From Rhizodiscina lignyota (taxonomy: Eukaryota): a stretch of DNA of 64,000 bases. Below, one piece after another: positions 2,940-40,166 of the stretch. Where the stretch lies: NCBI GenBank assembly GCA_010015805.1, contig ML978127.1:372001-436000 (forward strand), in the 5' to 3' direction. The notes below the pieces were generated by a model. That model ran no database searches. It saw nothing but the letters and a program-made list of their open reading frames with translations, and was not told the DNA's origin. The translations under genes were made by a program, and so were the position numbers. Numbering within the stretch: the stretch's first letter is position 1; each line of letters opens with the position of its first letter.

Positions 2940-4867
2940 TCAACTGATGAATCTTGGAGGAGGGCCGTGACGCCATTTGTCCTTTGCCATAGCTTCTAGC
3001 ACTCCATCGTCTGTAACTCGACTTATATCCATGAGGCGAGCTCTCATATAGTGCCTTTGTTTTTCAGATATGACAGATACCAGAGTCGAGAGGCTCATTG
3101 ACCATGTGAGGAAACGAACAGTACTAGCTCTCACCCTAACGCCTGGCTGGATTGTCATTGCTTCTTCGAAAGTTCTGGAATTATTAGTCTGTGGCCGGAT
3201 GGATCCAACAAAGCCAAAGTGATAAGGTACGGTCGAACATATGTCGTCTACAAGGCTCCGAATTAGCGTGCTAGCTTCCTGCTTAGTCGTTGCCGGAATC
3301 TGAGATTCGGAATAGGAAATTCCGAATTCATTAAGCAGGTCGAAAGCCTGAGCTATAACGTTGTTCATAAGCAGTCGCAACCCCGATATCGATTCCAGAT
3401 TGCTGCGTGTCCTATAGACACGTAGGCGTGCGCACATGTGCCGTACCAAACGTCATCCTGCTTGAACACGAGCTCTGCGAACCGTACTTTGCTCGTTCGT
3501 GTGACACAATCAGATTTTGAAATTGTGGAGTAGGACCACTCAGGCGGGAGTATGGACGGCCAGGCTGCGAGTGAGCGGTCAATGTCCTGGGCGTCCCGAA
3601 TCAATTGTTCCACGTCTGTTGCACAATGCAGATCTGCATTGCCATGACATGGAAAGTCTACTGAACTTGATCGCAGTATCCTTAGGCTCTGGAAATATTT
3701 TAGAGCTCGGTGCCACAGAGCTGCGACTTTCACAGCGCAAGTATCGAGGTGAAGTGACTCCCCCTCCTCGCCAAAACGGGCTCCATCCTCAAGCCATGAT
3801 GGAACTGTTGATCCACGCATGATACAAGTCCTGATCTATTTCGAACTTAGTGATCCGCCAAGTCACGCGCAAAAAGCATACATGGATGGTATCCACTCAC
3901 CAGTCCTCGGCGAACCACCTTGCTAACGACTAGACTCTCTTTGCTCATCTCTTGTTCTACTCTTAACTTGAGCAGTGCCGCCGCACCTTCATGGTGATAG
4001 AAGCTTCTTGAAAACCTCGATCGCGAATCTGGCGTTCCTATTGGCATATTTTCCGAGTCTTTAGGGCTGAATACGGTGTTCTATATCACATGATCAGGAT
4101 AAATCATAAATGGATATCGAATGGCCTTTATATTCCCTTGGACTGACCTCATATGTGCACATAACCATGACTGTAAGCAGAAGCTCATCACTCATAACTT
4201 GTAGTGCATCGTTAAGGGCCCGCTTGGTATAACTTAATGCCTGTTGATATATCTTGTGGCCCTCGGCCACTGCAGCTGCGCTGTGCTTTGCACGTCCAAA
4301 CGTCGCATGAGAAATAGCTGTCATGACGAGATGGAATGCGGATTCAGGATTTGAACGGATCCACCTCGAAGGGATGTACTTCGCATGGCCATTTGATATT
4401 TCTGGTAAGTTGTCCCGGTAATCCGTATGATTCGAGACGTAATAGTACGTTGCATATACCGAGAGCGGTAGATTTAGCGGTTTAACAATGCTGAAGTTGT
4501 TCTGGTCGATCGGAGTGCCAGATATGAAGACTGACTCGGGTGGCGTGCCGAATGGTTCTTCTCCATGTTTTCTTTCCTCATGTGAGGAGTCCACCGCGAA
4601 TAGCTGATCATTCATTAGACGGCCTCGGGGTCGTCTGCGCCGCCCGCCAGCATAAACATTTTCACTCAAAAATTTGAGATCTCCCTTGTAGCCACTATAT
4701 CCCCAGCAATGGCGATTCCTTTTCTTGCACTGACCACAAATTGGGCGAGTTTCATCGCACTACAAAGCCCCGTTAGATGGTTTACGCAGCATGAGAAGTA
4801 TGATGGACACGCTTACTTTCACGCGCCTTCTTTTGCATGTCGAGCAACCATGACTTGGGAATGGCAT
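2940..4867 (-). pseudogene. Zn(II)2Cys6 transcription factor with fungal TF middle region and a 1-nt frameshift near 3381-3384
   Basis: Exons 1 and 2 give MPFPSHGCSTCKRRRVK|CDETRPICGQCKKRNRHCWGY (six-Cys binuclear cluster). Later exons give HHEGAAALLKLR and AIWNRYR. ORFs 3365..3820 and 2940..3449 join only after a frameshift. Confidence 0.8.
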
Positions 4868-33922: not shown

Positions 33923-36900
33923 ATGAATGTCGCAGCAGCCTCCGCTCCATCATCGCACGCCGTCTTCGACGAAGCCGCTGCGTCTGAGTCTCCCGACTCG
34001 CAGGCCTTTTCGACCGCCGCGACCTCTTCGCCGCGACAAGTTCGCTTCCCACCAGGACATCATCTCGCCGACCACTATTCCTCTGCCTCCTCCTCGACAA
34101 TCCCTTCCCTCACATCGGCGAGCACATTCGAGAGCAAGCTGGAGATCTCACCATCAGAAGCGGCTGCTCGAAAGGGCATGCTGCAAGACTCTCTGTTTCC
34201 TGCATTCAGAGATGACGCTGCCAGCGACGGCATGGCAAGCCCGGAGGAGTTGCAGAAACGCGATCCGCTGGGTACGCAAATATGGAAGCTGTACAGCAAG
34301 GCCAAGACACAATTACCAAACTCCGAGCGCATGGAAAACCTGACGTGGCGAATGATGTCGATGAATTTGCGTCGGTTAGAGCAGCAACGTAAAAAGTGCG
34401 TGCCTCCTCCATTGATTTCGTTGACGATGCAGTCCATTAACAGGATGCGATTTAGCCAAGCGCGAACAGCCAGTAATACCAAGTCCACGACGAATGCACC
34501 GAGCGGCATTGCGCAACTTCGAAAATCAATTGATGCGAACTCGGAAAACAAGACGCAGCAAACATCGGAGGCAATGAATCTCGACGACTTCATTTTCCCA
34601 TCATCTGTGGCATCCCCAGCAGGCATCTCGCCGTCACCATCGGCGGGAAAGTTGGCAAGTGATCATGCGACAGCGCCGGCCATTGAGATCAAGCGCGATG
34701 AAAAAAGCAACGATGATGATGACCTCCAAGTTTCACGTGCTTCGGCCCCGTCCGAAGTGCCTGTGCTTACTTTGCATCACGAGTTCGATTACGTTCAGAG
34801 ACGCGTTCGGAAAACCAGCATTGACGAGCGAAGAGTGAGTTGTACCATCGCGCTGACATTTGCCGTTCTGTTTTACTAAAACAGTCTCAGCCCCCAAAAC
34901 GACGTGCAGAGGCTTCACCTCAGGTTCCTGCTGTTAACAACGTGTCAATGCCAAATGAGCCAGATGCTGAAGCTGCATTGCACAATTACTCTCTCGACCC
35001 CTCTCAAGGCAGCTCCATCTTCCAACAACAGCACGGCTCAAGTCAGGCACACGTCCCGTTCAGTCTCGATACTTTCAACCTCGAGAATGACCCTATCATT
35101 TCTTCTGCAGGTCCTTTCCAGCAGAACTTTGGATTCTCTCCTGTTGGCTCTCCGGCCAATCATAGCGGACAGTTCTCATCGATGTACAACCCCACTCCAA
35201 TGGGCTCGTCACTTCAATCTAGTGACCTTCACTCACCTATTGGCAGCACCTACCACTCGAACGTAAACACGCCGCAACCTCTCACGGAAGGAGAGGGCAT
35301 GTACTTCGATCGCAATCCTGTCGACATCCAGCGCCAACGAATGCACGGCTACGGTACTCAGACTTCGAACCTCTCCAACTCCATGCAGCCTCAATATATC
35401 TTCCATCCGAATGGCGACTCGATGTTTGCGCCAGTCACGTCATCAAACCAAATGCCCGCATTCTCCGCCCCTCAGTATAGCATGCAAGGCCATGTTGACC
35501 CGACCCAGGTCCTGCATGCCGACTTTCCCACATCATCAAGATCACCGGGCATGCAACTACCACAAAGAAACGAGATGTTCACGTTCGGTGGTGATTCGGA
35601 TGACAATGAAGATGACGAAAATACTAATTTCGCCGATCGTTCTATGCTCATTGCCTCAGAATTCTCTCCGATGGAAGATCCATCCCTTGAGCTGAACAAC
35701 GGATTCCAGTGGGAACCGAACTTGTCGAACCAGTTCAACCCTACCCCTGCAAGATATCCTGCCGGCCCGCCGCGGAAAACTGTTACAATTGGACCAACGG
35801 AGCTCGTACCATCTCCACAAGACTGGACATCGAGCGGTCTGCCTTCTCGTACGCATGGTTCGGCAGCGTCAGTCAGCGAGATCCGGAATCGAGTCAACGA
35901 CCCGAGACGTCAAAACAAGATTCCAAGAACTGCGTCCACACCCAATACTGCTGGCATGGTCGTTCCTAACCAATACATGCATCATCCATCTCAGTCTTCA
36001 CCAAACTCCCCTGGCGAGTCTGGCTTCACATCTGCAGCGCCATCACGTCCAGATTCTCCAAGCAATGCTGGAGGCAAGCAAGGCGATGGAAATGGGCAGC
36101 CTACGACTTGCACAAACTGTTTCACTCAGACTACCCCATTGTGGAGGAGAAACCCGGAAGGACATCCTTTGTGCAATGCATGTGGCTTGTTTTTGAAATT
36201 ACACGGTGTCGTGAGACCGCTCAGCTTGAAGACCGATGTCATTAAGAAGCGAAATCGTGGCAGCGGAAACACGGTCGGTGCGAGTGGGTCAGGGGGAGCC
36301 GGAGGCAATTCGAGAGGTACCAAGAAGAGTAGTCGGAAAAACAGCATTGCTCATACACCTGCTACGACGCCAGGAGGCCCGAAATCTGGACAGCAGAGCC
36401 AAAACCAGAGCCGTCAAGAGTTCCAGCCTAGCGAGAGCGAGAGCCCGAAGTCAACAGTGACTCAAGGAAGTACGGGAAGCACCGGTGTCAAGAGTGGTGT
36501 CGTTCCCATTGCTCCTGGTCCGCCCAAAGGTCCAACTCCACAACAGCAACAAGCAGCAAGAAGTAACGTCCAAGCTAGTCAAGGCATGGCTAAACGCACA
36601 CGTCGACAATCACGTGCCGGTGCCCAGGATTTCGAAATGGGCGATGCAGACGACACTTCTGGTAAATCTATGCCCCATGCTCAAACGCATGCTCAGGCAC
36701 CAGCGATGCCACACTCTGGGCCAGCGACGAGGCGGAAAGAGGCTCAAATGCAGCAGATGCAGTCGCAGTCAGCCCAGCAGCAGATGGCACAAGTCCACCC
36801 GATGGGTGTCCAACACAACATGGCACAGATGAACATGATACAGAACATGGCACCTGGACAGCCCATGGTCGGTGGTGCAGGAGGCACACCAGGACAAGGT

Positions 36901-36942
36901 GGTGGACCGCAGGAGTGGGAATGGCTGACGATGAGTCTCTGA
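33923..36942 (+). CDS. areA: Nitrogen regulatory GATA factor AreA/NIT-2
   Basis: [13 protein letters not shown]...[23 protein letters not shown] finger [50 protein letters not shown] and C-terminal EWEWLTMSL. Introns at 34396-34443 and about 34835-34884. An alternative in-frame ATG lies at 33848. Confidence 0.96.
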
Positions 36943-37174
36943 TTCTATCGATCAGCTCAGTACACGATTCCATTCTGCCTTACGGTTCTCTTTCAACTCA
37001 TGAACATGATCTATCCTGCTCTCTCAGATACCCCAATGGATTTCCTATGTTCGAGCGATCACGAACGATCAGCAACAAGCAACAACTTTCTTGTTTTGTC
37101 CGTCATGCACTCGCCTGCAGCGCGACAGCAGCACTCGTCTTTCGTAATGGCGCTCCGTGGCGATTAGCACCTTC

Positions 37175-37375
37175 GAGGCCGGAGGAGGCAGGCGCTCAGG
37201 CCTCTTCACCCCACTCGTTTCCTTCCTGTAATATATGCACACTTCTCCATACCGATGCTGCCGCCGTCGCTGTTCCTGACGGGCGTGCTTTCTGACTCTC
37301 CTGCGGAGGAGGCAGGCGCTCCGCGACGTGAGATGTCGGGTGTAGAAAGACGGAGGAGGCAGGCGCTCCGTCTTT
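37175..37375 (+). repeat. Three copies of CGGAGGAGGCAGGCGCTC, each at the top of a stem-loop, in the presumed areA 3' UTR
   Basis: Exact 18-mer at 37180, 37304 and 37351. The flanks of each copy are self-complementary. Confidence 0.9.
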
Positions 37376-38310
37376 GTTGTCTCTTTCAGATGACATTGAG
37401 TTGCGATACCCATAGACTAGGGCGTGATGTTACTTTTACGGGTCTATTGGGTTGGCAGATCCATTGATGATTATCTTTTATTCACATGTCGTGTGGTTAC
37501 CCTCTACTATTTCCCCTTTCCTTTTGACTGCGCTGTTTCCGAGTTGTTCTGGCGATTCCCGTAGACTGCTGTGGCTTGAGTCTTGCTTTATCGCCGCTCT
37601 TGTTTGGCGGCCGGTTGTTAATGGCTTCACTGTTGACGTTGTCGCATGCGGATGGGCTAGACCTTATGATGGATTTGACTTTGGTCCGTTACTTTTACGT
37701 CACGTAGACCTCGGGGCGTTGTGCAAATACAGATACGGAGGCGATGGATCGGCTCCGACACGCTTGCAAGCGTCAGCTGCTGGTGCTGCCGGGCTCTTGG
37801 TCCACAATTAATGAGTGAATTGAATTAAATTGAGATTGCGAAGGAGCAATTGAACGAGGAATCTTGATCGACCGTGTCCTTAGTATTGTGACTGATATTC
37901 CTCTTGCCCACACATAATGAATAACTCAGGAGCTAATGTACTAACGATGGTCTCTAAGAGACAAGTAGTAACTAGAACCTAGAACGGATCTTTACCGCTT
38001 AATAGCTCAGATTGAACCGAGCTATTCGCCATTTTCGTGGAGAGGCGAGTATCGCATGATTGTAAACTTAACATGGAAAAGGGAGACAATTCTGACAATG
38101 AAGGAGACATTGTACAGGTGCAATATTTCATGTGAGTCGAGACTACGTCCAGATCATACAAAGATCTCGCGACAGCCCATCTAGGTCTAAGTAGTGAAAA
38201 CCTCCAGCTCAGGTGGGTCTATGGTATACATGGCGTTTATAGTGACCCAATTATGACCAAATACGCCGGCGCTATGCAAATGAATATCTCCCTTTTACCA
38301 AGAACACATC

Positions 38311-40166
38311 TCAACAATAACCACCTTCCGGCGTATTGCCTCCCTTCCCATCACGGCCCTGCTTCTCCACTGGCTTGTCCCACTTCTCTCTCTGCTTCGC
38401 CAGCCTCTCCTCATGCTTCACCATCCTTTCCTCGGCATGCTCCCTCCTCCTTCGGATCCAATAGTCATTCCTCCTTGCCCTCGCATCCACGGCACCCAGT
38501 CCCGCTGTGCCCGCGTTTCTACCCAAAGCGCCTACACTCCCCAGCCCACCTGCTCCCACGGGCAACGGACCGCCAGGCATTGGCAACGCCTTCCGGTCCC
38601 AGAATCCAAGGCCAGATCTGCTCTCACGGCCGCCGCCCCACATACTAACACGCTGAACCTTGCGCAGCTTCTTGATGCCGACGGCGATGGCGCATGCAGA
38701 GGCGACGGCGCAGACCGCCGAGACTCCCCAGAAGCCGAGGTCAGACTCCTCGATGAAGTTCTTGAGATTCATGCCATACAAGGCTGCGAGAAAGGTCCCT
38801 GCAGTGAGGCCAAGCGTCCAGATAGAGAAGCGCAGGTCGAGCAGCATGAGGGAGTTGCGATTTGCGTCGAGGATTGCTTTGACTCTGAGGAAGGATATGT
38901 TGTTAGCACACGTCTATTTCAAGCAGGGTCGGCACGCGAGACGTACATTTCTTCGGTATTGCGAATGTTGGAGACCAAATTCTCCGAGGCCTGCACAATC
39001 TCATCGGTGACCTTGTGGTAACTCTCGAGCAACAGTTCTACTTCGTCGTGGTCGTTCTCACTGCGCCCCTTACCGGCCGCTTTCTCTGTCAGATACATGG
39101 CGGCAAGGTCATCGTCAGCGTCCAACAGCTCATCCAGCGCATCCCGCACTAATCGTGCCTTCTGCTCGAATGTACCAAGCTTTTTCGAATATATGAGCAA
39201 ATACCGCAGCTTGTCCCTGTCAATGTCCTCCTCCAGCTCCCGCAGCACGCGCACAACCGGTTCTCGCACGCCCTCAAACTCACTTTCCAAGCTTGTCGTT
39301 ACGCTGATAAGCACCGCTTCAAGTGCGCGGAACTCGTATGGCAAGTCACCCGGCTTCCCTCCTTGCTTTGGGGGCTCGACTTGGCTGAGCTTGCCCTCAA
39401 GGTCGTACATGAAGACAGATTGTGTATATGAATCAGTGCTCCCGTAGGCATCAAATACTAGGACTCGATTGTGCTTGATGAGGACGCGCAGGTGTAGTAG
39501 GTTTATCAGGATCGCGCTCGGCCGGATGAGTATGGACGGTAAGAGCGAGGAATCGATTTTGCGCAAGTCTCGCGGGAGAAGGCCATACTGTTATCGTCAG
39601 AGTGCCATTATTTCGAATGCCAGTAGTAGCCAGATGCACACCTTGGCGATCAATTCGCTCTTTTTGAATTCCCCATTCACAAGTGTGACATCGCCTTTCT
39701 CATCGAACTCGGTACACCGCAGTCTCAGCTCGTTCGCTGGCTTTAGTGCTCTTCCAGTGAAGCTGTTATCATCCAGAAAGCTCGCAAGCGGGGGTAGGTC
39801 TTGTGTGCGAAAGGTCTCTGCTGTTTGCTGCTGCTTCTTCATCCACCAGAGGTGGCTCCATACGCTCGAAGCACGCGAAGTCGTGGAGAATAGACGAGTC
39901 GAGGACGACCCGCAACTCTTGGGTTGGACTGATAGCTGAGGTGGCCAAGCGGCATTTTTTAGTGAAAGAGGTTTCAAGTCTCTTGGTGAGGTTGCGGTGG
40001 TTGATCGGTTTCGGACGTCATTGCACTGAGAGTTTCTCGGCGCTGCGCGACAGCTTATCGTCCTCGACTGCAGAACTCCGTCGGTCGCACAATTGAGGCT
40101 CTTTTTCAGAAACTTCAACAGGGCCGTCGACGGGGCGCCAGCATTGCAAGGAGGTCGTGTGGGCAT
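38311..40166 (-). CDS. MRS2: Mitochondrial Mg2+ transporter of the Mrs2/Lpe10 (CorA) family, 3 exons
   Basis: LRCTEFD, YGLLPRDLRKID, LPYEFRALE, ELLLESY and YGMN signature; two TM helices; basic N-terminal presequence. Confidence 0.92.

Follow-up and report, generated by a model that had tools for sequence, protein, structure and literature searches.

A conserved hairpin with an invariant 10-nucleotide loop in the areA 3' region of Rhizodiscina lignyota and related Dothideomycetes

Results

The window, i.e., the whole 64-kb stretch of DNA from Rhizodiscina lignyota that was analyzed, carries on its plus strand the gene for an areA/nit-2-type GATA factor. In filamentous fungi, GATA factors of this type are master regulators that switch the use of nitrogen and, with it, much of secondary metabolism. 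R. lignyota is a Dothideomycete and belongs to a fungal class other than that of Aspergillus. The last large exon of the gene extends from position 34890 to position 36942 (the start is approximate), encodes a protein ending in EWEWLTMSL, and terminates with a TGA stop codon at positions 36940 to 36942. The corresponding open reading frame (positions 34840 to 36942, plus strand) accounts for the C-terminal two-thirds of an AreA/NIT2-type GATA protein; from residue 18 on, its product is identical to a public R. lignyota protein, save for a 40-residue stretch. In the public gene model of this protein, the stretch (QVHPMG...GGGP) is treated as an in-frame GT..AG intron, at approximately positions 36796 to 36915, and excised. 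Since the unspliced reading gives back the ending common to all aligned orthologs, the intron of the public model is probably an annotation artifact. The region downstream of areA, in which the areA 3' untranslated region (UTR) begins, spans 1368 nt (positions 36943 to 38310, plus strand, according to the list of open reading frames), up to a convergent gene located on the minus strand (positions 38311 to 39566), the 3' end of which is directed toward the areA 3' UTR. The product of the convergent gene contains the sequence YGMNLKNF, including a GMN motif typical of CorA/Mrs2-type magnesium transporters.

Three hairpins, all on the plus strand, are located 233 to 433 nt past the areA stop codon. 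HP1 (positions 37175 to 37204) is formed by the arms GAGGCCGGAG (positions 37175 to 37184) and CTCAGGCCTC (positions 37195 to 37204), which form 9 of 10 possible base pairs with one G·A mismatch, and displays the loop GAGGCAGGCG at positions 37185 to 37194; it is the weakest of the three copies. HP2 (positions 37302 to 37325) has a 7-bp stem composed of six Watson-Crick pairs between GCGGAG (positions 37303 to 37308) and CTCCGC (positions 37319 to 37324) plus a U·G pair (positions 37302 and 37325), with the loop at positions 37309 to 37318. HP3 (positions 37346 to 37375) is fully paired (10 of 10 bp) between AAAGACGGAG (positions 37346 to 37355) and CTCCGTCTTT (positions 37366 to 37375), with the loop at positions 37356 to 37365. 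A half copy of the 3' part of the repeat, GGCGCTCCG, lies in direct orientation upstream of HP1 (positions 37149 to 37157, plus strand) and might pair with the 5' arm of HP1 in competition with the 3' arm. The coordinates and letters that the original prediction had assigned to the three hairpins all match the sequence, and the folding that it had proposed as a check returned each hairpin as the minimum-energy fold of its own 32 to 40 nt.

A repeat search identified a 20-nt family of three copies (95, 100, and 100% identity) spaced by 124 and 47 nt and also returned the inverted repeat of HP3. The 20-nt unit consists of CGGAG, the loop, and CTCCG, the latter being replaced by CTCAG in HP1. Outside this common unit, the sequence of the arms differs and pairing is kept. 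The 16-mer GAGGAGGCAGGCGCTC occurs exactly three times within the 64-kb window, and a search of both strands allowing for up to two mismatches also returned three matches, in comparison to an expectation of 0.04; none of 100 shuffled sequences reached this number. The 10-mer loop similarly gave three exact matches in 64 kb versus 0.20 expected (0 of 100 shuffles).

Comparison with shuffled sequences revealed that only HP3 folds better than expected (z-score of −2.58, versus −0.69 for HP1 and +0.10 for HP2), and the 231-nt region folded as a whole was worse than its shuffles (z-score of +1.97). When the UTR was folded locally, the pair probability was 0.72 to 0.98 for HP3, 0.36 to 0.61 for HP2, and 0.04 for HP1. 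Thermodynamics alone is thus weak, and the evidential weight rests on the comparison between species.

For this comparison, areA loci were retrieved from metagenomes with protein patterns alone, which were derived from an alignment of the AreA C terminus. Patterns matched 376 stretches, 289 of which were confirmed as relatives, and the best 80 were kept (designated by L followed by a number). Because retrieval relied on the protein only, this ortholog sample is blind to the RNA motif. The exact 10-mer was found on the sense strand downstream of areA in 27 of these 80 loci (the best 80 of 289), in a total of 29 copies. Clustering at 90% protein identity grouped the 80 loci and the window into 39 clusters, 17 of which contained the motif, namely, 16 of the 38 metagenome clusters and the window. 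Wherever the stop codon could be read directly, the loop started 206 to 625 nt past it. The conservation in orthologs that the original prediction had named as a check was therefore found, the exact loop being kept downstream of areA in 17 clusters, including the window. The fixed orientation of the motif relative to areA follows from synteny and adds no support. In three loci, the 10-mer was present on the other strand, upstream of the protein match; these occurrences are taken as chance.

Alignment of the 32 copies, corresponding to 28 distinct 34-nt contexts, revealed 13 invariant columns comprising the ten letters of the loop, the A and G that precede it, and the C that follows it. The loop thus did not vary among the 28 distinct hairpins, which came from 17 AreA protein clusters and have the consensus AGCnAGATGGAG-GAGGCAGGCG-CTCCATCAnGCT. 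RNAalifold predicted a 7-bp stem around the 10-nt loop, with pairing kept through double changes at five of the seven pairs. Compensated changes included UA to CG (five rows), AU to GC or CG (five rows), and two cases of GC to AU, in which GGAG/CTCC was replaced by AGAG/CTCT (one row) or by GAAG/CTTC (one row). For the 7-bp stem together with an outer 3-bp helix, 84.6% of 280 cells were paired, versus 77.7 ± 1.4% in shuffles (0 of 500 as high), and double changes were present at 8 of 10 pairs, versus 4.7 ± 0.9 in shuffles (0 of 500), counts that refer to cells in rows many of which are related and that therefore overstate the number of independent events. Sliding the partners by 1 to 3 columns as a control left 25 to 59% of the cells paired.

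Most motif-bearing loci contained one copy of the hairpin, L017 contained two, and L006 and the window contained three. Alignment of the UTRs of the window, L006, and L017 placed the copies in register, HP1 matching copy 1 and HP2 matching copy 2 of both L006 and L017. The stems of copy 1 are GCCGGAG/CTCAGGC in the window and GCCGAAG/CTTCGGC in L006, those of copy 2 are TGCGGAG/CTCCGCG and TGTGGAG/CTCCGCA, respectively, and that of copy 3 (AGACGGAG/CTCCGTCT) is identical in the window (HP3) and in L006. The AreA protein of L006 is distant from that of the window, yet its three ordered copies are colinear with HP1 to HP3, indicating that the triplication is old and maintained rather than a recent local duplication.

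According to the best named-protein match, the motif-bearing loci are near Parastagonospora, Alternaria, Lindgomyces, Zopfia, Lepidopterella, and Coniosporium. A gene tree was built from one representative per cluster (39 rows, without the other 41 loci) and 23 named references. In this tree, the motif was limited to one Dothideomycete subclade (support of 97/84), in which 17 of 21 clusters carried it, and the distribution of the motif required 3 changes of label on the tree versus a mean of 13.1 for shuffled labels (0 of 500). Seven clusters grouping with Aureobasidium, Capnodiales, Dothideales, and Patellaria references were devoid of the motif, some of them with flanks of only 590 to 800 nt. 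Four clusters inside the motif-bearing subclade lacked the exact motif. Among the motif-lacking loci, L015 was the only one with a diverged hairpin, which combines the loop GAAGCAGGCA with another 7-bp stem, GCTAGGG/CCCTAGT (13.4 bits with the covariance model described below); the hairpin was lost in L016, and a degenerate trace was present in L080.

Additional conserved blocks were observed in these UTRs. L015, L016, and L019 (Trichodelitschia-like) have in common the block TGATGATTCCCTTAGAGC, located about 700 to 800 nt past the stop codon, and the 11-mer ATGATTCCCTT was present in 6 of the 22 motif-lacking clusters. In areA UTRs of the Pleosporales type (L001, L008, L012, L029, L038, L045, L059, and others), conservation extends block-wise over about 350 nt around a single hairpin, with the blocks TTTGATACCTC, GATAGAC, and ACATACCC upstream and the blocks ACACCRCTCTAATA, CTGCATGAGCTTATGAGAGATATCC, and TGCATAGAAGG downstream of it. 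Several of these blocks contain GATA or GATATC; exact copies of TGATAC and GATATC are absent from the window. A remoter possibility is that the block-wise conserved Pleosporales region of about 350 nt directly senses a metabolite.

Pleosporales-like areA genes contain an intron of 46 to 52 nt within their last codons (EW|EWLTMSL), e.g., at positions 3680 to 3725 of L008 and 3674 to 3725 of L039, and removal of this intron was directly visible in L007 and L030. Except for the absence of the 46-nt GT..AG intron (GTACGT...CTAG) from L007, this contig and the genomic contig L008 are 100% identical, which identifies L007 as derived from spliced mRNA. The L007 contig has the hairpin 226 nt past the stop codon and extends 634 nt past that codon. 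Comparison of L030 with L039 revealed the same pattern, with removal of a 52-nt intron, the hairpin 333 nt past the stop codon, and a contig reaching 787 nt past it. No poly(A) tail was visible at the ends of the L007 and L030 contigs. As regards transcription, which the original prediction had listed for verification, the hairpin is thus part of spliced areA mRNA contigs in two relatives. For R. lignyota itself, a search for sequencing runs containing the stretch listed no RNA run and a single other run, in which the stretch matched one 73-kb genomic contig that is identical to the window and possibly its source.

A covariance model built from the alignment of the 28 contexts was searched over 452,001 bases. 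It recovered the 32 copies, as expected by construction, at 33.7 to 53.5 bits, with scores of 33.7, 39.0, and 43.4 bits for HP1, HP2, and HP3, respectively. One degenerate copy was added, at positions 3686 to 3720 of L006 (22.8 bits); in this copy 1 of L006, the stem is AGCCGAAG/CTTCGGCT and the loop is a variant of 11 nt, GAGGCAGTGCG. The remaining matches, considered up to an E value of 10, all had E values above 0.001 and were mostly reverse-strand images of the same sites; seven were weak plus-strand matches with E values of at least 0.046. The search performed with filters off detected no copy in the 64-kb window beyond the three hairpins, and no copy was found outside the areA 3' region in the window or the 80 loci (452,001 bases).

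Searching Rfam 15 with positions 36900 to 38350, on both strands and up to an E value of 10, did not identify any family reaching its gathering threshold; the five subthreshold matches had E values of 5 to 10, and the best of them scored 19.6 bits versus a threshold of 56. In the article texts searched, the matches listed for the 10-mer were all unrelated to fungi, the 14-mer GGAGGAGGCAGGCG appeared in human and sheep contexts only, and no description of an areA stem-loop motif was found. The searched text of a paper on secondary structures in Aspergillus (PMC2467506) does not mention areA, AN8667, nitrogen, GATA, or deadenylation.

Pairing between the loop and a distant UTR segment was also considered and rejected, since the complement of the loop is not conserved: no 8-mer of it was shared between the UTRs, and each 7-mer was present in only 1 or 2 of the 17 clusters. 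The 7-mer CGCCTGC, located downstream in the window, is accordingly taken as a chance occurrence.

A second element was detected in 10 of the 22 motif-lacking clusters. It consists of a variable stem-loop of 14 to 45 nt flanked by the invariant blocks TGATATCAYCGCGTCT and AGAAGTGCGCA and is located 157 to 443 nt past the end of the protein match, a point that precedes the end of the stop codon by 3 nt. RNAalifold predicted that the invariant blocks pair into a basal helix containing an AG bulge and that the variable tip covaries. The loci concerned (L009, L020, L035, L040, L043, L047, L049, L057, L058, L060, and L074; e.g., positions 3927 to 3986 of L040) are Lecanoromycete-like or Chaetothyriales-like. 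For L040, the best named match was Lithohypha guttulata (73%), ahead of Cladophialophora, Fonsecaea, and Exophiala. The Eurotiomycete-like loci that were found all carry this second element, not the hairpin with the 10-nt loop (decaloop hairpin).

Discussion

The original prediction had read the fixed loop on variable but paired stems as an RNA element under selection. This reading is upheld by the invariance of the loop in 28 hairpins, by the covariation of the stem, and by the presence of the hairpin in the spliced mRNA of relatives. We hold with high confidence the structural part of the interpretation, namely, that the hairpin is a conserved RNA element specified by its loop. The RNA motif is real and under strong selection and has apparently not been described before. 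The association of an invariant, asymmetric loop with a paired stem of free sequence, in one to three copies per 3' UTR, is characteristic of a docking site for a trans-acting factor that is specified by the loop. Since the same hairpin is kept in many related fungi, it is probably a docking site that controls the amount of the regulator.

On balance, we consider it somewhat probable that the hairpins are structured protein-docking cis-elements of the areA 3' UTR and that a nitrogen-linked factor sets the fate of the mRNA through them. The loop GAGGCAGGCG, displayed on a stem of at least 7 bp, would be the docking site for a sequence-specific trans-acting factor. This factor, most probably an RNA-binding protein, would decide what becomes of the areA mRNA. 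If it acts as in A. nidulans, an ample supply of nitrogen (glutamine) would lead it to recruit the machinery for deadenylation and decay, and the presence of three sites may lead to stronger occupancy or to cooperative binding. We infer that the loop is read by a protein, that the outcome is mRNA turnover, and that the signal is nitrogen. The functional part taken by itself, i.e., control of areA mRNA stability by nitrogen status, is transposed from A. nidulans and is proposed tentatively, as a reading that is plausible but falls a little short of probable.

The alternative that survives best, which we nonetheless regard as rather unlikely, accepts that the hairpin is real and read by a trans-acting factor but assigns to it a job other than nitrogen-signaled decay, such as translational control, mRNA localization, 3'-end formation or termination before the convergent gene, or the response to another signal. 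The structural and conservation evidence fits such a job equally well, the element characterized in Aspergillus is probably a different motif, and the clusters near the Capnodiales and Dothideales references are devoid of the hairpin. However, the element occupies the same relative place as the functional UTR region of A. nidulans, no data point to another function, and the areA message is the one known for control through its 3' UTR, a control that has been known in A. nidulans since 1996.

Recognition of the loop by Vts1 appears improbable. The Smaug recognition element (SRE) is a CNGG(N0-3) loop carried by a stem, and Vts1 recruits the Ccr4-Pop2-Not deadenylase in yeast. In this scenario, the SAM domain of Vts1 would read the CAGG of the loop and recruit Ccr4-Caf1-Not. 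The original prediction had noted, as a speculative link, the resemblance of this CAGG to the CNGG loops read by Vts1 and Smaug. The areA hairpin resembles an SRE in being a short 3' UTR hairpin with its information in the loop, in containing CAGG, and in its possible link to deadenylase recruitment, Caf1 being the deadenylase named for the glutamine effect in A. nidulans in the available text of PMC4282371. It differs from an SRE, defined by a loop of 4 to 7 nt beginning with CNGG, since the loop supported by covariation has 10 nt, starts with G, and contains CAGG internally, at positions 5 to 8. The register that would expose CAGG as a tetraloop is 5.8 to 6.5 kcal/mol worse and has a pair probability of at most 0.01, and the replacements of GGAG/CTCC by AGAG/CTCT and by GAAG/CTTC fit the register with the 10-nt loop. 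Moreover, all ten letters of the loop are invariant, which is far beyond the requirement for CNGG. The link to Vts1 and Smaug was consequently abandoned.

A site acting at the DNA level, i.e., a conserved sequence of 18 to 20 bp that binds a DNA-binding protein or forms a cruciform, is still less probable. The invariant core of 13 to 18 bp has the size of a protein-binding DNA site, the fold of HP3 on the opposite strand has a z-score of −4.01, and the wobble cells of the 7-bp stem (6 G·U versus 5 A·C) do not discriminate between the strands. Yet the loop is not palindromic, and the flanks past the core change in sequence and keep a complementarity that a duplex site does not need. This covariation, combined with the location of the hairpin inside the mature spliced mRNA of relatives, makes a DNA-level site unlikely.

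We give even less credence to the possibility that the G-rich 5' arm and loop (GGAGGAGGCAGG), with its four GG runs, forms a two-layer G-quadruplex alternating with the hairpin. GGA repeats form quadruplexes, and four GG doublets can indeed be read in the sequence. However, the first GG is broken in three distinct copies, as AGAG in L005 and as GAAG in L017b and copy 1 of L006, so that four G runs are not conserved, and this candidate was rejected. Since the 3' arm compensates for these breaks, what is maintained is the hairpin rather than the G run. Finally, a neutral local repeat or a mobile-element remnant, which could be suggested by the presence of three copies of a 20-nt unit within 200 nt, can practically be dismissed, since it is already contradicted by conservation of the exact loop in 17 divergent clusters, only downstream of areA in the 452 kb searched, and by copies that are orthologous and ordered in a distant relative.

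It is possible, if doubtful, that two unrelated structured modules occupy the same position of the areA 3' UTR in different fungal classes, the hairpin being a lineage-specific replacement of the nitrogen module with a copy number that tunes the response. If true, the decaloop hairpin, present in one to three copies in one large Dothideomycete branch, would define the recognition code of a candidate RNA-binding factor, and the module of the Eurotiomycete-like and Lecanoromycete-like loci would be a helix whose base is invariant and whose tip varies. The 34-nt hairpin with its invariant 10-nt loop provides a minimal and mutable handle in a branch that includes, by AreA similarity, relatives of Parastagonospora and Alternaria. 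This handle could be used to search for the reader protein, to test nitrogen-signaled mRNA decay outside Aspergillus, and to investigate how a regulatory module gets replaced in evolution while its position is kept.

The closest known system is the areA message of A. nidulans, in which a conserved 218-nt region of the 3' UTR was reportedly described by Platt et al. in 1996 and by Morozov et al. in 2000. According to the available text of two articles, this conserved part is required and sufficient for glutamine-signaled deadenylation, Caf1 is the deadenylase responsible for the glutamine effect, and this effect requires RrmA, which was pulled down on the 218-nt areA RNA (Krol et al. 2013, PMC4282371; PMC9460803). 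In the same portions of these articles, the 218-nt element is described as a conserved region, not as a repeat or a hairpin (PMC4282371, PMC9460803). Both the A. nidulans region and the hairpins reported here belong to areA orthologs, lie a few hundred nucleotides past the stop codon, and are strongly conserved noncoding sequences within a fungal class; by analogy, the expected mode of action would also be the same, i.e., an mRNA cis-element through which a trans-acting factor sets deadenylation and decay. They differ in that they originate from different fungal classes and in that the A. nidulans element, in the text available, is presented as a region with no defined hairpin or repeat. Since another structure occupies the same place in Chaetothyriales-like and Lecanoromycete-like loci, the Aspergillus element is probably not homologous to the hairpin, and the tie between them is probably one of analogy rather than homology. 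The second element may be the counterpart of the published Aspergillus region, which, by parsimony, would be more likely related to it than to the decaloop hairpin. RrmA has three RRMs, and proteins of this type usually prefer U-rich single strands, not a G-rich hairpin loop.

In its architecture, the areA hairpin can also be compared to the iron-responsive element and the histone 3' stem-loop, which are loop-specified protein-binding hairpins located in the UTRs of eukaryotic mRNAs. These elements have no sequence or structural similarity to the areA hairpin but, like it, combine an invariant loop with a covarying stem, occur in one or several copies per UTR, and differ in copy number between messages or lineages.
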